Positions 3,948 to 41,189 of a DNA stretch of 50,440 bases are shown here, piece after piece. The translations under genes and the position numbers were made by a program. Within the stretch, counting starts at the first letter, position 1. Every line of letters begins with the position of its first letter. Under the pieces are notes generated by a model that saw nothing but the letters and a program-made list of their open reading frames with translations, was not told where the DNA came from and ran no database searches. The stretch comes from Minisyncoccota bacterium (GTDB lineage: Bacteria > Patescibacteriota > Minisyncoccia > Phycocordibacterales > Phycocordibacteraceae), in assembly GCA_041660025.1 (NCBI GenBank), contig JBAZXD010000001.1, positions 106,059 through 156,498 of the forward strand, given 5' to 3'.

Positions 3948-5373
3948 ACCGAATGAGATGACGATTGGAGAGGCCGCCCGCGCCCTGCGGGCGCGGGAAC
4001 TCACGGTACGCGAGCTCTGGGACGCCTGCGTAGCGGCCGCGCAGGCGCGGAATCCAGAACTAAATGCGTATCTGGAGATTTTTCCCGCTGACGATATAGC
4101 GATTGGGTCGGCGCAGAAGCGCATTGATGCAAACGATGCGTCGCTCCTCGTCGGCATCCCGCTCGCCATTAAGGACAATATCTTGATAGAAGGGAAGATT
4201 GCGAGCGCCGCGAGCAAGATGCTCGAGAATTACCGCGCGACGTATGACGCGACCGTGATCTCGAGGTTGAGGGCCGCGGGGGCTCTTTTCATAGGTCGTA
4301 CCAATATGGACGAGTTCGCGATGGGCGGCTCGACCGAGCACTCTGCGTTCGGCAGGACGTTGAATCCACACGACACGTCCCGTGTGCCGGGCGGCTCCTC
4401 CGGCGGCTCCGCCGCTGCGGTCGCAGCTCACCTCTGCATCGCCGCCCTGGGCTCAGACACCGGTGGTTCCATCCGCCAGCCGGCGGCATACACTGGTCTC
4501 GTCGGGTTGAAGCCGACCTACGGCGCCGTCTCGCGCTCGGGGCTCATCGCGATGGGCTCGTCGCTCGACCAGATCGGCCCTTTGGCAAAGACGGTCGAGG
4601 ATGCTCGGATCCTGCAGGAAGCGATTTCCGGCATTGACCAGCTCGACTCGACGACCATCCCCGCCGGTCTTTATCCCGCGCGCGAAGCGGGGACCGCGAT
4701 GCGCATCGGCGTCCCGCGACACCTGCTCGCCGAGGGCGTCACGGCAGAAGTGCGCGCTGCGTTCGACGCTATGCTTGACTCACTCGCGCGCGCCGGGCAC
4801 ACGCTCGTCGATATCGAATTGCCGACGAGTACGTACGCGCTCGCGTCGTATTACGTGGTGATGCCGGCCGAGGTCTCGACGAACCTCGCACGGCTCGACG
4901 GTATGCGCTACGGCCTCTTTAAGCGCGGCGACACCCTGCTCGACGATTATCTGCTTTCTCGTACCGAAGGCTTCGGCCCCGAGACGCGCCGCCGCATCCT
5001 GCTCGGCACTTTCGTGCTCTCCTCGGGCTACATTGATGCGTATTATCGGAAGGCTACCCGGGTACGCGATGTACTACGGAACGAATATAACGAAGCGTTT
5101 CAGGCGTGCGACGTTGTCGCCTTCCCGACGACGCCCGCGCCGGCATTCGTTCTCGGTGAGAAGAGTGACCCGCTCTCGATGTATCTTGAAGACGTGTTTA
5201 CCGTTACTGCGAACCTTACCGGTATGCCGGCACTTTCCGTCCCGATGGGTTTTGTGGAACGGGAAGGTAAAAAGCTTCCCGTCGGCATTCACTTCACTGC
5301 GCCGCACCAAGCAGAGAATATTCTTTTCGCTATTGGGGACACAGTAGAGCGCACTACTAAGTCCGCGGCATAA
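3940..5373 (+). CDS. gatA: Asp/Glu-tRNA amidotransferase subunit A
   Basis: Amidase signature GGSSGGSAAAV, DTGGSIRQPA, TNMDEFAMG. Confidence 0.97.
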   Translation: MSKPNEMTIGEAARALRARELTVRELWDACVAAAQARNPELNAYLEIFPADDIAIGSAQKRIDANDASLLVGIPLAIKDNILIEGKIASAASKMLENYRATYDATVISRLRAAGALFIGRTNMDEFAMGGSTEHSAFGRTLNPHDTSRVPGGSSGGSAAAVAAHLCIAALGSDTGGSIRQPAAYTGLVGLKPTYGAVSRSGLIAMGSSLDQIGPLAKTVEDARILQEAISGIDQLDSTTIPAGLYPAREAGTAMRIGVPRHLLAEGVTAEVRAAFDAMLDSLARAGHTLVDIELPTSTYALASYYVVMPAEVSTNLARLDGMRYGLFKRGDTLLDDYLLSRTEGFGPETRRRILLGTFVLSSGYIDAYYRKATRVRDVLRNEYNEAFQACDVVAFPTTPAPAFVLGEKSDPLSMYLEDVFTVTANLTGMPALSVPMGFVEREGKKLPVGIHFTAPHQAENILFAIGDTVERTTKSAA

Positions 5374-14744: not shown

Positions 14745-14873
14745 GGTGCGTTTGATAGTGTGTCGAGAGTGCCGGGCGGATTGCCGCTGTAAGCGTTGCT
14801 TGCACGCTTCCACCCGGCTCGTTCGGAGAGTGTGGGAATGAGTGCAGACACTCGTTCCCACACTTCCTCACTC
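14745..14873 (+). ncRNA. Structured tRNA-leader element A
   Basis: Hairpins AAGCGT-TGCTTGC-ACGCTT and GTGTGGGAATGAGTG/CACTCGTTCCCACAC; homologous to 19661-19783; abuts tRNA +1. Confidence 0.65.
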
Positions 14874-19660: not shown

Positions 19661-19783
19661 TTAGGATGCACGAGTGCGAGAAATCCGAGTCGCCGCGATA
19701 AGCGTTGCTTGCACGCTTTTCTTTCGGCTCGTTCGGGCGGTGAGGGAATGTATGAGGACACACATTCCCTCACACCTTCACTC
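19661..19783 (+). ncRNA. Structured tRNA-leader element C
   Basis: Identical TAAGCGTTGCTTGCACGCTT and CGGCTCGTTCGG to element A; second hairpin with compensatory changes; abuts tRNA +1. Confidence 0.65.
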
Positions 19784-29634: not shown

Positions 29635-30411
29635 TTACTGCTTCAGCCCAAGACCTTTCTTAAGGAAGTACACATTCACACCGAGGAGGACGAGCATCAG
29701 TGCGAGGAGAACGAGAAAGCAGGTGAGAAGCGGGACGTCGCTTGTGCCGAGGAATCCGTAGCGGAAGCCGTTGATGATATAGAATACGGGATTGAACAGC
29801 GACACTGTCTGCCAGACGGGTGGGAGCGAGTGTATCGAGTAGAACACGCCACCGAGATAGACGAGCGGAGTGAGCACAAAGGTCGGAACGATAGAGACAC
29901 CATCGAAGCTCTTCGCATAGATGCCGTTAATGAGTCCGCCGAGTGCGAAGACGAGGCTCGAGAGAAGGAGGAAGAGTAGTACGACGAGCGGATGGGCGAC
30001 GGAGGGGAGTGCGAAGAAGAGCGAGACGAGCATCACCAGAGCGCCGACCAGCATCCCGCGGACGACGCCGCTCGCGATGAAGCCGGCGATGATAACGCTC
30101 GGCGGCGTGGGCGAGACGAGTATCTCATCGATGTTGCGCGAGAAGAACTTAGAAACGAAGAAGGTCGTCGCCACATCCATATATGAGTTTGTAATGACCG
30201 CGAGCATCACGAGGCCCGGCACGACGAAGAGAATGTAGGGAACGCCATTCAACTCTCCGATCCGCGAGCCGAGGATACTGCCGAAGACGGCGAAGTAGAG
30301 CACCGAGGTAACCACAGAGGGGAGGAGTGTCTGCGGCCAGATGCGCAGGATGCGCACGACGCCCTTGCGCAGGATGGTATAGAAGGAGATGAATTGTTTT
30401 TCTATCGGCAT
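29635..30411 (-). CDS. ABC-2 transporter permease (YadH-like)
   Basis: RIWPQTLLP, FVVPGLVMLAVITNSY, PLVYLGGVFYSI. Confidence 0.92.
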   Translation of the reverse strand: MPIEKQFISFYTILRKGVVRILRIWPQTLLPSVVTSVLYFAVFGSILGSRIGELNGVPYILFVVPGLVMLAVITNSYMDVATTFFVSKFFSRNIDEILVSPTPPSVIIAGFIASGVVRGMLVGALVMLVSLFFALPSVAHPLVVLLFLLLSSLVFALGGLINGIYAKSFDGVSIVPTFVLTPLVYLGGVFYSIHSLPPVWQTVSLFNPVFYIINGFRYGFLGTSDVPLLTCFLVLLALMLVLLGVNVYFLKKGLGLKQ

Positions 30412-30414
30412 AGT

Positions 30415-31182
30415 TTAGGCGTCGCTGGTGAGCTGAACGAACACCTCTTCGAGCCGCCCGCCGCCATAGCCGCTTACGGGCGCGGTCTTGTCATGGAGCG
30501 CGAGGATCTCTTCCATCGTGCCCTGCGCGACAATTTCGCCTTTGTTGATGATGGCGACGTGCTTTGCAAGGCGCTCCGCCTCCTCGAGATAGTGCGTGGT
30601 GAGGAGTATCGTGATGCCTTCTTTCGTGAGGGAGGTGAGGTAGTCCCACATACTCCGGCGGAGCTCGACATCGACGCCGGCGGTGGGCTCATCGAGGATG
30701 AGGAACTTCGGCTCGTGAATGAGCGCCCGAGCGATCATCAGCCGGCGCTTCATCCCGCCCGAGAGCTTCCAGCCTATCTGGTCGTTCTTGTCTGCGAGGC
30801 CGAGGTCCTCGAGGAGCCTCTTCGCGCGCGGGAGAGCGACAGAGCGCGGGATGCCGTAATAGCCCGCCTGGTTCACGAGCACATCAAGCGGCTTCATCCA
30901 CGGGTCGAAGTTTATCTCCTGCCCGCAGAGCCCGATGAGCGCTCGGGCGCGCTCGGGCTCCCGGTCGATATTAATGCCGAACACTTCCGCGGTTCCTCCG
31001 GTCTTGGTCACAAGGCCGGTGATGATGCCGATGAGAGTTGTCTTGCCCGCGCCGTTGGGGCCAAGCAGGGCGAAGAGCTCTCCCGTGGGTATCGTGAGCG
31101 AGACGCCCTTGAGCGCCTCAGTACCGCCCGCGTAGCGCTTCATCAGGTCGGTCACGACGAGTGCGTCTGTAGCCTTCTGCAT
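30415..31182 (-). CDS. ABC transporter ATP-binding protein (YadG-like)
   Basis: GPNGAGKTT, LSGGMKRR, LDEPTAG. True start MQKATD at 31182; the listed 504-aa ORF is an upstream run-on. Confidence 0.92.
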   Translation of the reverse strand: MQKATDALVVTDLMKRYAGGTEALKGVSLTIPTGELFALLGPNGAGKTTLIGIITGLVTKTGGTAEVFGINIDREPERARALIGLCGQEINFDPWMKPLDVLVNQAGYYGIPRSVALPRAKRLLEDLGLADKNDQIGWKLSGGMKRRLMIARALIHEPKFLILDEPTAGVDVELRRSMWDYLTSLTKEGITILLTTHYLEEAERLAKHVAIINKGEIVAQGTMEEILALHDKTAPVSGYGGGRLEEVFVQLTSDA

Positions 31183-31236
31183 AGTTGATGGAGTATAACA
31201 AACTTCCGTATCTAGAGTCTGCGGTATACTGAGCGT

Positions 31237-31773
31237 ATGAATATCCACCCTTTGTTCGTGCATTTCCCGATAGGGCTTCTCGTCGCGTATTCGGTGCTTG
31301 AGCTCGGCGCATACCTCTTTCCGGCGCTTCGCCGACAGGCCTGGCTCTTCCCGGTAAACGCGTTCCTCCTCTTCGTCGGCATCCTGGCCGCGTTCGCGAC
31401 ACTTGTCACGGGCGATATGGCCGAGGAGCTTATCGAGACGGCGGGGGACCCGAACGGCGCGCTCGTCGAGACCCATTCCTCGTTCGCCGCGACAACGACG
31501 CTTCTCTACCTCGTCCTTGCGGCGGCGTATCTCAATCGTATATTCGACAGAAAGGGATGGTTTACTCTCGTCATCGGGACAAACCGTTTCCTCGCGTGGG
31601 GATGGAACGTGAAAAAATACCTCGCACACCTCATTCTCGACACGTGGCTTCTGCCCGTGCTCGCGCTTATCGCGCTTATCGGAATGACGATTACGGGCGG
31701 TCTCGGCGCGGCCATCGTCTACGGCCCGAATGTCGATCCTCTCGTCTCGTTCATCTACCAACTCTTCTTCTAG
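31237..31773 (+). CDS. DUF2231-like membrane protein
   Basis: HPLFVHFPIGLL N-terminus, TGGLGAAIVYG C-terminus. Confidence 0.8.
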   Translation: MNIHPLFVHFPIGLLVAYSVLELGAYLFPALRRQAWLFPVNAFLLFVGILAAFATLVTGDMAEELIETAGDPNGALVETHSSFAATTTLLYLVLAAAYLNRIFDRKGWFTLVIGTNRFLAWGWNVKKYLAHLILDTWLLPVLALIALIGMTITGGLGAAIVYGPNVDPLVSFIYQLFF

Positions 31774-31783
31774 TTTTATTCGG

Positions 31784-31949
31784 GCTGCCAGACTTGGACT
31801 ACGAGTACGTTTTTCGAAACGTACCGTTTCAGTACACCTTGTGGATTTTCTGTTCGCTTCGCTCCATAAAATGCTCACAAGGTCTTCGAATCCAAGCCGC
31901 AGGCGTCCCACACCTGCTTCTGGCAGCAAAAACGCTGCGCTTATTTTTG
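31784..31949 (-). repeat. Inverted and direct copies of the tRNA-Gln 3' end around a multi-hairpin element
   Basis: 31919-31932 pairs with 31944-31957; 31885-31896 pairs with 31958-31969; 31784-31798 is a direct copy of 31949-31963. Confidence 0.85.
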
Positions 31950-32020
31950 CTGCCAGACTTGGATTCGAACCAAGATACTCAGATTCAGAGTCTGAGGTCC
32001 TACCATTAGACGATCTGGCA
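31950..32020 (-). tRNA. tRNA-Gln(CTG)
   Basis: TGCCAGA/TCTGGCA acceptor, TCAGA-CTCTGAA-TCTGA anticodon arm, CTTGG-TTCGAAT-CCAAG T arm. Confidence 0.96.
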
Positions 32021-32171
32021 ATAAGAACACTTTATTCTTGCCAATCGTCTTTTGGGAGGACGTGTCCTACTAGCAAGTGAGCCGAGCCAAATACGAAAGT
32101 CTTCTTTTGTATTTGTGAGGCGAACGCAGCTAGAAAGCCCGGAGGGCTTACCATTAGACGATCTGGCAATA
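32021..32171 (-). repeat. Inverted and direct copies of the tRNA-Gln 5' end around a multi-hairpin element
   Basis: 32149-32171 is an exact 23-bp copy of 32001-32023; 32038-32050 is an inverted copy of 32008-32021 with a 1-nt gap. Confidence 0.85.
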
Positions 32172-32245
32172 GCACGGCACTCCGGTGCCGTGCTCCTTAG
32201 ACGATACGTTAAAAGCCCGGTTTATTCAATATATTCAGGGGGTCT

Positions 32246-32274
32246 TGACTTTAAAACCCCCTCTGTGTAGTATC
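32246..32274 (+). promoter_or_regulatory. Sigma70-type promoter
   Basis: TTGACT-17-TAGTAT; the -35 sits inside a GGGGGT/ACCCCC inverted repeat. Confidence 0.6.
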
Positions 32275-32374
32275 TCCCAGTCGACCCTTTCGGGCCGATT
32301 TCGCGTTTTGTCCCCGACCTATGGGAGGAGGCAAGACTTTTGCACATTCACTCATCAAAAAGAAGGAGTTACCC

Positions 32375-32674
32375 ATGCCCAGGAATCAACGCAATAAAAC
32401 CGCCCATCTGGTCTCAGTTGCCATCGGCGGCATTTCGTTCAAGATGGTACCGAACAGCATCGACAAGAAGCTGCGCGAACCGCTCCACGGCGAATTCAAA
32501 GGCGAGAAGGTCAACAGTCCCGCGATGCTCAAGCTCGGCACCAAGCCCAGCGATAGCGTCATCGTGTGGCCCGATGAGAACAAGCCCCAGGCCTATGCGA
32601 TGAGCATCGCCGCCGCCGGCGTGTTCTCGACCAAGTTCCTCGAATCCGAAGGCAAGTCTCTCGCCGCGACCTAA
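32375..32674 (+). CDS. Hypothetical basic protein (99 aa)
   Basis: AAGGAG SD before ATG 32375; followed by two hairpins. Confidence 0.75.
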   Translation: MPRNQRNKTAHLVSVAIGGISFKMVPNSIDKKLREPLHGEFKGEKVNSPAMLKLGTKPSDSVIVWPDENKPQAYAMSIAAAGVFSTKFLESEGKSLAAT

Positions 32675-36173: not shown

Positions 36174-36569
36174 ATGGACTCCTACACTTCATATCAGGCG
36201 CTCATCAAGCCGAGCTGGTCGCCGCCCGCGTGGGTCTTCGGTCCCGTGTGGACAGTGCTGTACGCCATCATCGCCGTTACGTTCGGCACAGTGTTCTATA
36301 AGGCGTTCACCAGGGAAGTCCCCTGGGCGGTTGCGCTCCCGTTTGCACTCAACCTCGTCTTTAATTTTTCTTTCACGTATTTCCAGTTCGGCCTGCAGAA
36401 TAATGCGCTTGCCTCAATCGACATCCTGCTCGTCCTCGGCACCCTCGTCTGGGCGCTCATTGTCGTCTGGCCCCACGCCCGCTGGGTCGCCCTCGCCAAC
36501 ATCCCCTACCTCCTCTGGGTCTCCTTCGCGACCGTCCTGCAACTTACGGTTACGTATTTGAATCGATAG
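36174..36569 (+). CDS. tspO: TspO/MBR tryptophan-rich sensory protein
   Basis: LIKPSWSPPAWVFGPVWTVLY, PYLLWVSFA. Confidence 0.95.
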   Translation: MDSYTSYQALIKPSWSPPAWVFGPVWTVLYAIIAVTFGTVFYKAFTREVPWAVALPFALNLVFNFSFTYFQFGLQNNALASIDILLVLGTLVWALIVVWPHARWVALANIPYLLWVSFATVLQLTVTYLNR

Positions 36570-36596
36570 GAATGGGTGCTTTAATTGGTGGAAGTC

Positions 36597-37757
36597 ATGA
36601 CAACTCTAAATCTACAGCCAAATGGAGAAGTAATTCGGTGGGCAAGAGAAACAAGTCGCAAATCTATCGCCGAGATTGCGGCGGATTTGGATGCAACACC
36701 AAGCGAAATTCGTTCGTGGGAAGCCAATTCTGCTCCGGTTCGTCTCACTCAACTTAAGAAACTGGGATCTTTGTACCAGAGACCCATCGCTTTTTTCTTC
36801 GCGCCTGTTCCTCCAACAGAGGAGTTAATTACTCCAGCTTTTAGAACATTTGATTCAGTCAAATTAGATTCCCTTTCAGAAAAGACCCTTATTGCACTTC
36901 GGAAGTCAAAAGAAAATAGAGACCTGTATAAGTTTCTTCTAGAGGAACTTGAAGAGAAATACAGCTTCAATTTTCCCATCACCTCTATTAACGATGATGC
37001 CGATCAATTCGCAGATAAAGTCAGAAAGTATCTCGGTATTTCAGACAACATTCATGAGAGATTCAAAGATAAATATGTTGCCTTAAAATTTTGGATAGCT
37101 CTTGTTGAACAACACGGGCTATTAGTCTTCCAATATTCTCTTCCAGAAAGGGGGTTTTGTTTAAGTGGCAATGAGGACCTTCCTCCCACCATCGTCATGA
37201 ATTCGGGAGAATACCCTGCCGGCAGAATATTCACCATATTCCACGAGCTTTGCCATCTTTTGCTGAAAGAAAAATCAGAATCTATATCTCACACAAGATT
37301 GGAAGAGTACTGCAATCACTTTGCTGGGGCGTTTCTTGTATCCAAAAGAAAGTTGATGGAAAGCAAAAACAGGGAGAAATTCCTGCTTGAAATGTCCGAT
37401 TTCTGGTTAGGAAGGTTGGCCGGTGAGTTCAAAGTTAGTCATGAAGTCGTTTTACGAAGGCTATTGATTCTTAAGGATATCACCCAATCATTTTACAATC
37501 AGAAAATAGCAGAACTGAAGAAAATTCAACAGAGAAGAAAGGAAGAATCTGAAACAAGCGAGAATTCGGGGTTCATAGCTCCTGCTCGCAAAGCCCTAAT
37601 GAACGTGGGCGTCACTATGGCCTCGAAGCTCTTTCAAGCACGAGATGCCGGTGTTATTAGTACAGCAACGCTCGTTAGAAGTTTTGACACCACCTCGCAT
37701 TCTTTGAAAAACGTTGGTACCGAATTAGCGTCCGCAAAGAACCTAAAGCTCGAATGA
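36597..37757 (+). CDS. XRE-HTH plus ImmA/IrrE zinc metallopeptidase fusion
   Basis: N-terminal HTH (IRWARE...IAEIA...IRSWEA), FTIFHELCH, EEYCNHFAGAFL; AT-rich. Confidence 0.92.
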   Translation: MTTLNLQPNGEVIRWARETSRKSIAEIAADLDATPSEIRSWEANSAPVRLTQLKKLGSLYQRPIAFFFAPVPPTEELITPAFRTFDSVKLDSLSEKTLIALRKSKENRDLYKFLLEELEEKYSFNFPITSINDDADQFADKVRKYLGISDNIHERFKDKYVALKFWIALVEQHGLLVFQYSLPERGFCLSGNEDLPPTIVMNSGEYPAGRIFTIFHELCHLLLKEKSESISHTRLEEYCNHFAGAFLVSKRKLMESKNREKFLLEMSDFWLGRLAGEFKVSHEVVLRRLLILKDITQSFYNQKIAELKKIQQRRKEESETSENSGFIAPARKALMNVGVTMASKLFQARDAGVISTATLVRSFDTTSHSLKNVGTELASAKNLKLE

Positions 37758-38293
37758 TGGCCAACATGACTTCGACGCGAATATACATTATTGATACAAG
37801 TGCTTTTGTAGTGCTTGATACGTTATTCCCCTTCGCACAATGGCAACCAATATGGGATTTTCTTGGGGTAAAGGTGACAGAGGGTGTTCTGAAAACCATC
37901 GATGAGGTAGAGGAAGAGTTAAAAAGGAAATTTTATGATCTACCGATTACGGATTGGGTAAAAATGCGAAGGTCAGAGATAAACTACCCGTATATTCCAG
38001 AGCATTTTCAATATCTGAGACAGGAGGTTTACCCACGATGTAATGGGCTCATAAATCCAAACAGTACGTCGACTTTATACGCTGACCCGATGCTGTTAGC
38101 GATAGCTGGGCATGATAACCACACGTTGGTCACCGACGAAGTGCTTAAAGAAATTCATGCAAACACAAATCCTCTGAAAATTAAGCTTCCTAACCACTGC
38201 AGCACTCTTGGTGTCAATTGTATCTGGGGAAGGTATGCATGGACCCAGTTACTAAATGAGCTTGGGTTACAAATTACAGGATTTAAAACTTAA
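37754..38293 (+). CDS. DUF4411-like PIN-domain protein
   Basis: YIIDTS, EVEEEL, ADPMLLAIA, LVTDE, KIKLPNHC; overlaps the IrrE stop. Confidence 0.82.
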   Translation: MMANMTSTRIYIIDTSAFVVLDTLFPFAQWQPIWDFLGVKVTEGVLKTIDEVEEELKRKFYDLPITDWVKMRRSEINYPYIPEHFQYLRQEVYPRCNGLINPNSTSTLYADPMLLAIAGHDNHTLVTDEVLKEIHANTNPLKIKLPNHCSTLGVNCIWGRYAWTQLLNELGLQITGFKT

Positions 38294-38352
38294 ATACCAC
38301 TGGACATAGCACGGATTTAAATAAGGAGTAGACTTAAGCGGTATAGATAGGT

Positions 38353-38700
38353 ATGAAGAAAATAGACGAATTTACAAAGAGAATAGTTGCCTTCAGGAAC
38401 GCCCGGGACTGGAAGCAATTTCATAATCCCAAGGATCTCTCACTCTCTCTCGTTCTCGAGGCCACCGAGGTCATGGAGCATTTCCAGTGGAAGAATAAAG
38501 AAGAAATAGAGAAGTACGTTATTGAAGCAAAAGGAGAAATAGGGGAGGAGCTCGCAGATGTCTTGTATTGGGTTCTTTTGATGAGCCACGACCTAAAAAT
38601 AGATGTACTCAATGCGCTCGATAAAAAGATGAAGAAAAACGAAAAGAAGTATCCCATCAAAAAAGCAAAAGGGAAACATACGAAGTACAACAAACTTTAA
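38353..38700 (+). CDS. MazG-like nucleotide pyrophosphohydrolase
   Basis: FRNARDWKQFHNPKDL, EATEVMEHFQW, EELADV, KYP. Confidence 0.93.
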   Translation: MKKIDEFTKRIVAFRNARDWKQFHNPKDLSLSLVLEATEVMEHFQWKNKEEIEKYVIEAKGEIGEELADVLYWVLLMSHDLKIDVLNALDKKMKKNEKKYPIKKAKGKHTKYNKL

Positions 38701-38703
38701 TTT

Positions 38704-41013
38704 ATGATTGTTTATCAATCTACGAAACTAGGGTTTTTGAAAGATGCATCAAATGGAATCGAAGACATAGTTAGAGAACAGGTAAAAGAAAGGCTCAATA
38801 TCGATATTAAAGTCGGGAGCAGTGAATATAACTCCTGGAAAAACTCCTTGGGAGATGCGATGTACAAGGTAATGCAAACGGATAAGATCCCAGATGATTC
38901 TGGCGTTGCAATAGAATACTCAATACCTCGCACGAAAAACCGTATTGATTTTGTCATTACAGGTGAGGATGATAATGGTAAAGAGAAAGTTATTATCATT
39001 GAGCTCAAACAATGGACCGATATTCAAAAGACGGATAAAGATGCAATCGTCACCACCCGCTTTAAAAGCGGCTTAAGCGAAGAACTCCATCCCTCGTATC
39101 AGGCATGGTCGTACTCCACTCTTCTTTATGGGTTCAACGCTACAGTATACGAGGAGAAAATTGGTCTAGAACCCTGTGCATATTTGCATAATCATGTGGA
39201 TGAAGACGTCATATTGAGTCCTTTTTATGCTGATTATCTTCAAAAAGCACCTGCTTTTTGCAAGGGGGACAAAGAAAAACTTCAGGACTTCATTGCGAGA
39301 TTTGTTAAACACGGAGAAAAGAAAAACACGCTTTATCGGATCGATCATGGCGAGATTCGTCCATCAAAGAATCTCGCGGATAGTCTGGCTTCAATGCTCA
39401 AAGGTAATGACGAGTTTGTCATGATAGATGAACAAAAGATTGTGTATGAGACAGCGCTTTCTCTCACGAAGAAATCTTCAAAAACCAATAAAAACGTATT
39501 GATTGTCGAAGGCGGTCCGGGTACTGGCAAGTCGGTAGTAGCGATAAATCTTCTGGTAGCAATTACTAAGCTGGGGCTCAATACGCAATATGTAACCAAA
39601 AATGCAGCGCCACGTGGCGTGTTTGAGGCAAAGCTTGTGGGGTCATTTAAGAAGTCGCAAATATCGAATTTCTTCACTGGATCGGGGTCATTTGTTGGAG
39701 AGGAAGAAAATATCTTCGATGCTCTTATTGTCGACGAAGCACATCGGCTTAATGAAAAATCTGGAATGTTCAAAAATCTTGGTGAGAACCAAATCAAGGA
39801 GATTATTGATTCTGCAAAGTGCTCGATATTTTTCATAGATGAAGATCAAAAAGTGACATGGCACGATATCGGGAGGAAAGAGGAAATTGAGAAGTGGGCA
39901 AATAAAATTGGTGCAAAGGTTCATGGTCTCAAACTTGAATCGCAGTTTCGCTGCAATGGTTCTGACGGATATCTATCATGGCTTGATAATGCCCTTGGTA
40001 TAGAAGAAACAGCAAATACAACCCTGGAGGGGATAAATTATGATTTTAAGATTGTTGAATCGCCGAATGAATTGCGGGACATAATTTTCGAGAAAAATAA
40101 AATTGCCAATAAAGCACGATTAGTTGCTGGGTATTGTTGGAATTGGGTAAGCAAAAAAGATAAGAATTTAAATGACATCGTAATTCCAGAATATGACTTT
40201 GGGATGAAGTGGAATCTTGCAAGCGATGGAAACGTTTGGATAATATCACCGAAGTCTGTAAACGAAGTAGGTTGCATTCATACGTGCCAGGGTCTTGAAG
40301 TTGATTATGTTGGGGTTATTGTTGGAAATGATTTTGTTGTCCGAAACGGCGAAATAGTGATTAATCCTGATAAACGCGCGAAGACCGATGCATCACTAAA
40401 AGGATACAAAAAGGAATTTAAAGAAAACCCAAAGGCTGCAGCCGAGAAAGCTGATGCAATCATCAAAAATACCTACAGGACCCTCATGACCCGAGGAATG
40501 AAAGGATGTTATGTCTATTTTGTAGACAAGGAAACGGAAAATTATTTTAAGAATAGAATCGGAAAAGAGATAGACTATCAAAAATATTTCGCACCGGTAT
40601 TGTCGCCGATTACCCGGGACATGATTCGTGTTCCGCTCGTCGGATCGGCCCCATGTGGTAACCCATTAGTAGGAGAACAGAATATCGAAGAGTATATTTT
40701 AGTCGAGAAAGCAAAAATCAAGCCCGGGTTTAAATATTTCATCCTCAGGGCCGAAGGAGACTCAATGAATCTCGCAGGTATAAATGATGGGAACCTTGTC
40801 TTATGCCGCCTGCAAGAAAAAGCTGACACAGGTGATCGAGTCGTGGCTCTTTTAGGAGGTGAAAACGTCACTATCAAAGAGTATGGCCCACGAGAAGACG
40901 GTGTCCGTCTGTTACTCCCTAAGAGTACAAATAAAGAACACCTGCCGATTACTCCCGACGAGGGTGACAGTGTGCAAGGTGTTGTTCAGGAAGTTATTAA
41001 ACCGACAGAATAA
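38704..41013 (+). CDS. DUF2075-type nuclease/SF1-like helicase fused to C-terminal LexA/UmuD S24 peptidase domain
   Basis: RIDF...IELKQW (PD-D/ExK-like), GGPGTGKS, VDEAHRL, HTCQGLE, TYRTLMTRG; then VPLVGSAPCG, EGDSM, TIK. Confidence 0.9.
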   Translation: MIVYQSTKLGFLKDASNGIEDIVREQVKERLNIDIKVGSSEYNSWKNSLGDAMYKVMQTDKIPDDSGVAIEYSIPRTKNRIDFVITGEDDNGKEKVIIIELKQWTDIQKTDKDAIVTTRFKSGLSEELHPSYQAWSYSTLLYGFNATVYEEKIGLEPCAYLHNHVDEDVILSPFYADYLQKAPAFCKGDKEKLQDFIARFVKHGEKKNTLYRIDHGEIRPSKNLADSLASMLKGNDEFVMIDEQKIVYETALSLTKKSSKTNKNVLIVEGGPGTGKSVVAINLLVAITKLGLNTQYVTKNAAPRGVFEAKLVGSFKKSQISNFFTGSGSFVGEEENIFDALIVDEAHRLNEKSGMFKNLGENQIKEIIDSAKCSIFFIDEDQKVTWHDIGRKEEIEKWANKIGAKVHGLKLESQFRCNGSDGYLSWLDNALGIEETANTTLEGINYDFKIVESPNELRDIIFEKNKIANKARLVAGYCWNWVSKKDKNLNDIVIPEYDFGMKWNLASDGNVWIISPKSVNEVGCIHTCQGLEVDYVGVIVGNDFVVRNGEIVINPDKRAKTDASLKGYKKEFKENPKAAAEKADAIIKNTYRTLMTRGMKGCYVYFVDKETENYFKNRIGKEIDYQKYFAPVLSPITRDMIRVPLVGSAPCGNPLVGEQNIEEYILVEKAKIKPGFKYFILRAEGDSMNLAGINDGNLVLCRLQEKADTGDRVVALLGGENVTIKEYGPREDGVRLLLPKSTNKEHLPITPDEGDSVQGVVQEVIKPTE

Positions 41014-41051
41014 TAAACCCCGCGAGATCGAATTTCGTGGAGTAAGAAACT

Positions 41052-41189
41052 CTAGTTTGTTGGTTTCGGTTGGTTCGTAATTTTGGCTGGTGCGCTTTTA
41101 GGTAAGTTGGTCAACTTAACGGGAAGGCTTTTCGGCTGGTTCGTAATTTTGGCAGGCGGATTCTTTTTTTGATTGGTGAGTTTTGTCAT
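41052..41189 (-). CDS. Unannotated 45-aa Lys/Pro-rich peptide made of four 11-aa repeats
   Basis: MTKLTNQKKNP-PAKITNQPKSL-PVKLTNLPKSA-PAKITNQPKPTN; the nucleotide differences between the PAKITNQPK segments of repeats 2 and 4 are synonymous. Confidence 0.65.
   Translation of the reverse strand: MTKLTNQKKNPPAKITNQPKSLPVKLTNLPKSAPAKITNQPKPTN

Follow-up and report, generated by a model that had tools for sequence, protein, structure and literature searches.

The closest described relatives of the locus that we analyze here are integrative elements that target tRNA genes, att sites formed by a folded single strand, and MITEs (miniature transposable elements with inverted repeats). The locus is a tRNA-Gln(CUG) gene in a 50,440-nucleotide (nt) stretch of a Minisyncoccota genome (contig JBAZXD010000001.1, positions 106,059 to 156,498; hereafter the window), and it is flanked on both sides by copies of its own ends. 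In none of the three known kinds does a shared body carry exact antisense arms that are cognate to the neighboring tRNA, as it does in the element behind this gene. Our best reading, in which our confidence is evenly divided, is that two independent, structured insertions that lack open reading frames (ORFs) each duplicated one end of the tRNA and are dispensable. The anti/anti-anti geometry of the locus, in which an antisense copy can face either the tRNA or a distal copy of its end, is on this best reading a by-product of end duplication. The downstream insertion belongs to a family that is large and apparently undescribed; how such elements move, and what they do, we infer.

Tycheposons provide a precedent for partial tRNAs. 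Such fragments flank integrated elements and remain from degenerated ones, and repeated events give rise to arrays of partial tRNAs (10.1101/2020.12.28.424599). Like these and other elements with att sites in tRNA genes, the units described here have their site at a tRNA loop, leave the gene intact and place a partial copy beyond the insert; the repeated stretch extends from where the insert entered as far as the gene end (15 nt on the 3′ side and 23 nt on the 5′ side), and arrays of partial tRNAs occur. As expected of a Campbell-type integration, direct repeats of a tRNA segment extend to the gene end, and precise empty sites exist (in L101 on one side, and in L092 and L058 on the other). Williams in 2002 reportedly set out a sublocation rule for integration within tRNA genes. 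The units here, however, measure only 148 to 187 bp and carry neither integrase nor cargo and, unlike in tRNA-targeting elements, one homologous body serves at least 17 tRNAs, bears an exact antisense copy of the att segment and has a covarying structure.

A different likeness is offered by the attP(+) site of CTXphi and the attC sites of integrons. According to two accounts, an inverted repeat on one strand folds into a duplex that imitates the target, and this single strand integrates into a duplex and is resolved by replication (PMC3442271, PMC4792948). The analogy would lie in a conserved structure over variable sequence and in strand asymmetry, both of which are equally compatible with an RNA. 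The elements here differ from these sites in lacking an Xer/dif or IntI core (the T-loop reads GTTCGAA, not GTTRRRY), in having no recombinase nearby and in having a target that differs from copy to copy.

MITEs, together with repetitive extragenic palindromic (REP) repeats and bacterial interspersed mosaic elements (BIMEs), share with the elements here their small size, absence of ORFs, richness in hairpins, multiple copies, position just after genes or terminators and occasional tandem arrangement. Unlike in MITEs, the terminal arms are copied from the local tRNA rather than being specific to the element, and the direct repeat is 14 to 21 nt long and ends at a gene boundary, whereas a MITE makes a short, fixed target duplication. 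The association, moreover, is strictly with tRNA 3′ ends and co-oriented, which sets these elements apart from both MITEs and REP repeats. A remnant of an IS200/IS605-type palindrome-associated transposable element (PATE) or of a TnpB omega-RNA, which should lie 3′ of a short, unduplicated target and have subterminal hairpins of its own, was considered and rejected on account of the long cognate direct repeat and of a left end made of tRNA sequence.

Among RNA devices, attenuators, antiterminators and T-boxes likewise have three segments of which the middle one pairs with either neighbor, with a terminator-like hairpin in one alternative. The element here, in contrast, lies after the gene, is dispensable in close relatives, occurs in tandem, shows no specifier or tRNA-sensing logic and has no Rfam match. 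It has the mutually exclusive pairings of an attenuator but is not conserved wherever the tRNA is conserved, since five of the nine genomes that share this tRNA do not have it. Disrupted tRNA genes of Archaea, which include introns at noncanonical loop positions, split and tri-split tRNAs and mobile tRNA introns, contain inserts in the D, anticodon and T loops, fragments with complementary leaders, and inserts common to different tRNAs (PMC10714607). At the loci here, unlike there, an intact tRNA is always present, no splicing is needed and the hosts are bacterial; nor was a bulge-helix-bulge motif seen, although no search for one was made. Quasipalindromes are also corrected by template switching (Ripley; Lovett). 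Such correction could keep an arm the exact complement of a tRNA end, trailer included, with the distal copy following; it accounts, however, for maintenance only and leaves the body and its spread unexplained.

A scan of positions 31700-32400 against Rfam 15 (cmscan, E up to 10) returned only the tRNA and three chance-level matches of 14 to 17 bits, and at the gathering threshold, too, Rfam yielded nothing but tRNAs; likenesses to ribozymes, box C/D RNAs and T-boxes had no Rfam support. When the 441-nt locus was searched with blastn against phage and plasmid collections, only the tRNA-Gln part matched, and a full-text literature search found nothing on such elements.

Separable flanks and empty sites at the tRNA-Gln locus

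The tRNA-Gln gene itself is intact and ordinary. It occupies positions 31950-32020 of the minus strand (Rfam RF00005, 62.1 bits against a threshold of 29; ARAGORN reports Gln(ctg) at 31949-32020), with a U1-A72 pair, a 4-nt variable loop and a discriminator G, and CCA is not encoded. The 441-nt strand of the locus folds far more strongly than its shuffles (z = −9.55). The original prediction, made from the sequence alone, had claimed direct copies of both tRNA ends, and both are exact. Upstream, 32149-32171 repeats 32001-32023 over 23 nt (tRNA nt 1-20 and the 3 leader nt before them), and the copy can be followed for 30 nt at 93% identity (32142-32171); downstream, 31784-31798 repeats 31949-31963 over 15 nt and, with the trailer included, over 23 nt at 87%. 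The 5′ 23-mer and the 3′ 15-mer each have two matches in the window, against 0.00 and 0.04, respectively, expected from shuffles. The inverted copy of the 3′ end is likewise as claimed, matching at 14 of 14 positions at 31919-31932 and at 12 of 12 at 31885-31896, the two parts being split by a 22-nt hairpin at 31897-31918. The first part is complementary to the acceptor 3′ strand, the discriminator and six trailer nt, and the second to the T-loop and T-stem; given the six trailer bases, the copy was made from the gene and not from the mature tRNA. An inverted copy of the 5′ end is present too, in a weaker form than had been described (15 of 18 positions for 32044-61 versus 31997-32014, or 12 of 13 with a 1-nt gap), and it is degenerate in L184 and absent in L004.

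Evidence for our reading comes from nine assemblies with an identical 71-nt tRNA-Gln, namely, the window and eight others. Both flanks are present in two of them, the downstream flank alone in one (L092) and neither in five; in the remaining one (L004) the upstream flank is present and the contig ends at the tRNA. In L101, cccgaataaaact lies directly 3′ of the identical tRNA, and the same 13 nt follow the distal 3′ copy in the window (31771-31783). Because the tRNA of L101 is joined straight to cccgaataaaact, the 165 bp between the two 15-mers are an indel. On the other side of the gene, a conserved promoter (TTGAAT-17-TATCGT) and a leader hairpin abut the tRNA directly in L092 and L058; in the window, L184 and L004 the same promoter and hairpin abut the distal 5′ copy, and 148 bp more come before the real tRNA. 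From the positions of the promoter, the leader and cccgaataaaact in the empty alleles, it follows that the distal copies keep the ancestral flanks. At the level of sequence comparison, these alleles show that the two flanks are separable indel polymorphisms bounded by direct repeats and that neither is needed for this tRNA-Gln. The tRNA in use would then be the middle of the old gene together with ends that lie inside the inserts.

The single mirror-symmetric device that had been described resolves into two separable insertions, one of 148 bp and one of 165 bp, and the mirror symmetry is partly accidental, since the two flanks are different elements. The alternative suggestion, a footprint left by an element that copies its target in either orientation, comes close to the data: both flanks are indels, and the downstream family carries cognate sense and antisense copies. 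The empty alleles for which the original prediction had proposed a search exist in relatives with the identical tRNA (L101; L092 and L058). Similar flanks were not found at the other five tRNAs of the window, none of which has a copy of its ends of 10 nt or longer within 500 nt; their sole matches are two 9-mers, a size given by chance. A supposed parallel with leaders at 14.7-19.8 kb also fell away, as what is shared there is a promoter and leader-hairpin cassette and not a copy of tRNA ends. That homologous cassette lies upstream of tRNA-Met (14874) and tRNA-Thr(ggt) (19784), at 14764-14873 and 19674-19783, in the order aagcgttgcttgcacgctt, cggctcgttcgg, a 15- to 16-bp hairpin with GGGAATG, and then cttcactc.

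The downstream unit (31784-31948) is 165 bp long and contains no ORF. Read in the tRNA sense, on the minus strand, it consists of a hairpin spacer, an antisense acceptor strand, hairpin H1, an antisense T-stem/T-loop, a four-hairpin body and the distal sense 15-mer. The spacer (31933-31949), composed of the trailer CAAAAA and an 11-nt loop, forms the apex of the hairpin between the tRNA 3′ end and antisense arm 1. In the window it has no stable hairpin of its own and is a degenerate form of the terminator-like hairpin seen in most members of the family, and the inner trailer differs from the outer one. Antisense arm 1 (31919-31932) is the exact reverse complement of the acceptor 3′ strand, the discriminator, C and the trailer A5. 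H1 (31897-31918; AGC-stem-UGGGA-stem-GCG) stands exactly at the acceptor/T-stem junction of the antisense copy, and antisense arm 2 (31885-31896) is the exact reverse complement of the T-loop and the T-stem 3′ strand (CTTGGATTCGAA in the tRNA sense). The body continues with the long hairpin P1 (31837-31882), whose apical loop is GAGCGAAGCGAA, with the family signature motif UGUAC plus hairpin H3 (UGAANNN-GUA-NNNUUCG; 31815-31836), and with the small hairpin H4 (ACG-UACU-CGU; 31801-31810). The tRNA's final 15 nt, from T60 to the base after the discriminator, recur as the distal direct copy (31784-31798), which is read as the displaced original 3′ end.

The upstream unit, of 148 bp and also without an ORF, is built differently: an outer 5′ fragment (leader plus nt 1-25) with a module in its D loop is followed by about 45 nt and then by the real tRNA. 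The promoter-like TTGAAT-17 nt-TATCGT (32201-32229, minus strand), read from the alignment, keeps its position in the window, L184, L004, L092 and L058 and has TTGAAC in L244; a generic promoter scan lists a neighboring site, 32255-32228, rather than this one. The leader hairpin (AGCACGGCAC-CGGA-GUGCCGUGCU; 32171-32194, minus strand) adjoins the tRNA directly in L092 and L058. Since the conserved promoter and leader hairpin come before the distal direct 5′ copy (32149-32171, minus strand; tRNA nt 1-20 with 3 leader nt), we take this copy to be the original 5′ end. On the same strand follow the upstream body of about 84 nt that we call the U module (32067-32150; a GCCC-UCC-GGGC hairpin, UUUCU, and a hairpin of 12 bp capped by an AAGA loop), the imperfect antisense 5′ copy (32038-32061; AGACGAT-TGGCA, extending over GGAC...GTCC, 18 nt at 83%) and, between this copy and the tRNA, a short proximal leader (32021-32037) that is part of the 148-bp insertion. 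In the window, L184 and L004, the U module lies in the D loop of the outer fragment, the order being nt 1-20, the module, and then nt 19-25 (GTAGGAC, 32064-32070). It has two hairpins with some compensatory change, and in L244 and L245 it stands alone between the stop codon of a DUF2231 gene and the tRNA-Gln promoter. It is a separate module of about 85 nt that is also found outside a tRNA.

Fragments of 5′ tRNA ends are not peculiar to this locus: they occur upstream of 23 of the 158 tRNAs at the metagenome loci, mostly spanning nt 1 to the D or anticodon loop, and some are in tandem. Five tRNA-Gln loci (L006, L011, L031, L054 and L059) have a nested architecture in which an outer 5′ fragment (nt 1-19/31) comes first, then an intact tRNA on a long leader-trailer stem that extends the acceptor stem, and then outer fragments 28/35-51/54 and 51/54-72; these look as though a complete tRNA cassette had entered an older tRNA-Gln gene. 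Another recurring hairpin module, CCCGCCCGCAACGCCUGAGC...GCGAUGGCGGGCGGG, whose internal loop is a k-turn-like UGA/GAU tandem-GA, was seen in L051 (~4070-4110), L111, L054 and L002. It occurs in the D loop of tRNA-Gln fragments and inside downstream bodies of type B (see below), and in L111 it lies on both sides of the tRNA-Gln.

A family of structured elements behind tRNA genes

About a quarter of the tRNA-Gln loci compared have the layout of the window, and from these emerged a conserved hairpin, GAANNN-GUA-NNNUUC, in which the NNN positions covary. A metagenome scan with the motif AAGSTGTACTGAANNNGTANNNTTCGA yielded at least 120 loci, and the family motif had 0 matches in the viral contig collection. 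Among the motif matches listed that have a tRNA within 400 nt, all 87 lie on the same strand as the tRNA, and in 81 the tRNA is upstream. tRNAs of at least 17 amino-acid types are occupied, by which a device specific to Gln is ruled out. The 83 tRNA-element pairs among the matches listed include 61 with a direct copy of at least 10 nt of the cognate tRNA's last ~21 nt and 50 with an inverted copy of at least 10 nt. The direct copy starts in the T-loop (20 to 21 nt) or at T60 (14 to 16 nt) and ends one base past the discriminator; in the inverted copy, as in that of the window, a hairpin typically interrupts the sequence at the acceptor/T-stem junction. The covariance model R1, which was built from nine copies, finds 120 + 11 copies, so that more than 130 are known from Patescibacteria metagenome-assembled genomes (MAGs) and metagenomes. 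In the window its sole match lies at 31783-31927 (132 bits, E = 1.5e-30). The 50-kb window thus holds one copy; elsewhere several, mostly divergent, occur per contig.

Secondary structure in the downstream body is conserved and strand-specific. In an alignment of 112 distinct sequences, paired cells make up 94.7%, against 64.6% in shuffled and 32 to 44% in slid alignments, and 30 of 33 pairs show double changes. All 8 pairs of H1 (helix 2) show double changes, with 98.3% of cells paired. In H3 (helix 4), 98.7% are paired, the NNN positions covary and the U:G closing pair is present in 104 of the 112 rows. H4 (helix 5) alternates among ACG/CGU, GCG/CGC, GUG/CAC and GGC/GCC, and P1 has compensatory changes among the window, L092, L013 and L096. 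With the near-invariant U:G set aside, G:U exceeds A:C by 94 to 42, and therefore the folded strand is the tRNA-sense strand, either as RNA or as single-stranded DNA.

The antisense arms follow the tRNA beside which they lie. Where a tRNA has a non-Watson-Crick acceptor pair (n = 30), the arm is exactly the complement of the 3′ strand in 16 cases and exactly the 5′ strand in 0. The closing helix is therefore a perfect duplex image of the 3′ end of the gene, and the same count (16 versus 0) rules out a copy of the tRNA 5′ half, a duplicate of the tRNA and a synthetase-type acceptor mimic. Arm 2 tracks T-loop positions 59-60 of the cognate tRNA across the family. In L244, next to the same DUF2231 gene (protein 70% identical), the tRNA-Gln has acceptor and T stems of another sequence, TGCGGGT/CAGGG, and the arms of its element match them. 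When the sense copies of an element disagree, the distal one seems the more decayed.

The spacer between tRNA and arm forms a stable hairpin followed by a run of at least four T in 42 of 49 family members, 31 of which also have an A-run. Tandem arrays with units of 171 to 187 nt occur, and they may mix body types or hold a member with arms for another tRNA-Gln. Orphan copies lie behind protein genes, after T-arm-like hairpins. In L051 (5690-5915 and 7270-7515), for instance, two ORFs of 200 amino acids have near-identical downstream flanks without any tRNA; behind each come, in this order, a hairpin resembling a T-arm (GGTTCCGACGTCGAACC), an acceptor strand in degenerate form, a terminator and an element similar to type A whose arms are of the tRNA-Gln type. 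Bodies also share parts across loci: in L152 an identical 43-nt P1 is found in the elements at tRNA-Leu and tRNA-Cys, the remainder being different, and the P1 variant of the window recurs in elements at tRNA-Arg, tRNA-Glu and tRNA-Tyr. Sequence has therefore been exchanged among loci. Besides the type A body, at least two further types have the same layout of antisense and sense arms, type C (L021, L088, L130, L143 and L184) and type B (L002, L040 and L079); one of the two contains gacggaggcg...gccgagtcgggg and the other gaaaggggtcgggg...ccgtgg.

The proposed insertion and its rivals

How insertion could produce this architecture may be outlined as follows. Each insertion would sit at the former end of the original gene and leave a spare partial copy on the far side. 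The downstream unit would be a small Campbell-type insert that carried one copy of a tRNA end together with its exact complement, and its folded single strand could recreate a double-stranded target in the manner of CTXphi attP(+) or integron attC. Recombination within the shared segment would duplicate that segment and give the order sense, hairpin, antisense, body, sense; the antisense arm could pair with either sense copy because the duplication leaves two. Arms might be kept cognate by palindrome-correcting template switching or by gene conversion, bodies might be exchanged between loci within a genome, and the pairing of the antisense arm with the distal copy may keep the spare fragment from interfering with the tRNA. 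More tentatively, and with a good deal of doubt, we suggest that the family may be a new class of element: either a structured single strand of about 150 nt (DNA or RNA) with an exact, re-templatable duplex image of the target's T-arm and acceptor 3′ end, inserting harmlessly behind any tRNA, or a class of small RNA linked to tRNAs, new and widespread in Patescibacteria, that would function in the metabolism of tRNA or of RNA.

A number of observations weigh against insertion. Neither within the element nor close to it did Pfam scans of the neighboring genes reveal a recombinase, a transposase or a reverse transcriptase, and neither a circular junction nor an excision product nor polymorphism within a population was seen. 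Among the matches far from a tRNA that were checked (L154, L218, L188 and L179), none was an autonomous version. The one long candidate parent, in L218, was rejected as a separate serine-recombinase island inserted between a tRNA and its element; this 6.6-kb island (L218, 532-7130) encodes a large serine recombinase of 504 amino acids, whose 3′ end overlaps tRNA-Glu(ctc), along with a Rep-like ORF and a Gly-rich repeat protein, and it is integrated between tRNA-Glu(ctc) and its type A element. The nearest relative obtained through a search with the DUF2231 neighbor is only 79% identical, and at that distance insertion is indistinguishable from deletion between repeats. Only one of the six tRNAs in the window has an element, and most elements at different tRNAs of one contig are divergent, as would be expected of ancient elements maintained by vertical descent no less than of mobile ones. 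Internal hairpins are kept at 98% and closing arms at 89 to 93%, suggesting that the body is under selection in place and may have a host function. A test of the crossover model went in the predicted direction without reaching significance, the antisense arm matching the inner copy over the outer by 18:9 in the acceptor part and the outer over the inner by 12:9 in the T part. Insertion, finally, offers no direct account of how three arms (acceptor antisense, T antisense and sense copy), interleaved with conserved modules, become cognate to at least 17 tRNAs. We hold the insertion reading no more firmly than we do because there is neither recombinase nor circle nor autonomous parent, because insertion and deletion are inseparable, and because a host function of the body is possible.

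Two rivals place the function of the elements in RNA. The original prediction had first offered a folding switch for pre-tRNA maturation; in its broader form, the flanks would be co-transcribed as a switch or processing platform in cis, with the antisense arm alternating between the tRNA 3′ half and the distal decoy and thereby gating folding, processing by RNase P, RNase Z or RNase III, or pre-tRNA quality control. The alternative pairings on which this rests are borne out by folding. Read-through RNA comprising the tRNA and the downstream element has a minimum free energy of −101.0 kcal/mol, with the tRNA 3′ half paired to the antisense arm and the 5′ acceptor strand to the distal copy, and −86.8 kcal/mol with the cloverleaf enforced, so that the antisense-paired fold is favored by 14 kcal/mol; a transcript ending at the U-run is predicted to fold as a cloverleaf. 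Such pairings are real and potentially harmful, which fits the terminator-like hairpin that usually precedes the arm. Co-orientation, the fixed position behind tRNAs, the mutually exclusive pairings and an RNA-like, strand-specific structure with more G:U than A:C also speak for a switch; the spacers of the window, L092 and L184 lack a good terminator, which makes read-through likely, and because the promoter precedes the distal 5′ copy, the primary transcript must include the upstream element. A requirement for maturation, however, is not supported by the comparison, as five of the nine identical-tRNA genomes lack both flanks and L092 lacks one. A switch is further at odds with an element at only one of six window tRNAs, with a terminator-like hairpin ahead of the antisense arm in 42 of 49 members, with tandem arrays, orphans and noncognate array members, with a distal copy that decays faster than the internal hairpins, and with an antisense 5′ copy that is not conserved; we judge it distinctly unlikely. 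A domesticated, tRNA-linked gene for a noncoding RNA seems to us unlikely. Its body would be a functional small RNA, for example protein-binding or catalytic, with its ends clamped by a helix borrowed from the tRNA, made by read-through or from a promoter of its own and matured in the manner of a tRNA-like unit. Such a gene would agree with the single-stranded motifs that are conserved amid covarying stems (UGUACUGAA, a GUA triloop, UACU, and an H1 loop reading UGGGA or ACUGCUU), with internal hairpins that are better conserved than the arms and with the use of one arm logic by body types A, B and C. Yet the arms are exact 3′-strand complements in which acceptor identity pairs such as G:U are not kept, so the helix is no synthetase-type mimic; most copies leave no room for a promoter between spacer hairpin and arm; and the distribution is patchy, with loss in close relatives and no match to an Rfam family.

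The other rivals dispense with a dedicated element. Ordinary scars of integrase islands, in which a prophage or island at the tRNA lost its interior and left attL and attR a few hundred bases apart, would produce direct repeats that stop exactly at the gene end, like att identity blocks. Integration at a tRNA 3′ end does take place in these organisms (the large serine recombinase island of L218), and partial tRNAs are known for tycheposons (10.1101/2020.12.28.424599). Random decay, however, would leave neither a homologous body of ~145 nt with compensatory changes at more than 130 loci and 17 tRNA types nor an exact antisense copy split by a conserved hairpin, and the motif is absent from the viral contig collection; we consider scars very unlikely. 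Local replication error alone, in which the template is switched once at the trailer hairpin and once at the palindromic T-loop TTCGAA and the tRNA 3′ end becomes an inverted triplication, would give the order sense, antisense, sense, junctions at TTCGA(A) and a trailer within the antisense arm, all of which are seen. As a sole origin it is highly improbable, being contradicted by the family: the conserved body and H1 at unrelated loci go unexplained, and the inner trailer differs from the outer. Finally, short inverted and direct repeats can mislead assemblers into chimeras or collapsed repeats, and the independent Logan contig L001 stops inside the downstream element, at 31855. This contig nonetheless matches window positions 30355-31855 with 0 mismatches and so crosses the left junction, from gene through distal 3′ copy into the body. 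Homologous flanks recur in the independent assemblies L092 (the downstream element, with a few substitutions) and L184 and L004 (the upstream element), leaving an assembly artefact a next to negligible prospect.

Patescibacteria have tiny genomes, and many of their tRNA genes are nevertheless accompanied by structured elements of 130 to 190 nt, sometimes in arrays. To annotation pipelines they will look like partial tRNAs and long palindromes without explanation. Should they be mobile, it is a mechanistic puzzle how one body gains sense and antisense arms for at least 17 tRNAs, and they might be a natural case of target recognition templated by the target; should the folded-image reading be true, the target itself would supply the means of its recognition, which would thereby be programmable. 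As functional RNAs they would be among the most abundant unknown RNA classes of this radiation. In either case they are markers of strain-level indels at tRNA loci and call for caution in tRNA-based detection of islands.

Genomic surroundings of the tRNA-Gln cassette

The 600-bp gap that holds the tRNA-Gln gene is bordered by two plus-strand genes, one for a membrane protein of the DUF2231 type (31237-31773), the other a small ORF (32376-32603). The window belongs to a Parcubacteria/Kaiserbacteria-like genome of the Patescibacteria; matches to a 24-mer of the tRNA come essentially only from MAGs labeled as this radiation, along with a few labeled just "bacterium" and four that bear proteobacterial labels. 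The whole tRNA-Gln cassette, promoter through downstream element (31771-32260 in the window), is inverted between genomes with respect to the DUF2231 gene: in L184 and L244 it lies downstream of DUF2231 and points the same way, and in the window the two converge.

Further along the window, positions 36500-41100 form a low-GC island (0.40 to 0.42, against ~0.58 elsewhere) that looks like an acquired defense or mobile-element island. Its genes encode an ImmA/IrrE-type M78 peptidase (36585-37757), a DUF4411 protein (37754-38293) and a 769-amino-acid fusion of a Schlafen-group-3 helicase with an S24 peptidase (38704-41013). Between the tRNA cassette and the small ORF at 32376, positions 32228-32275 contain back-to-back promoter-like sites, TTGACT-17-TAGTAT on the plus strand and TTTAAA-16-TATATT on the minus strand.

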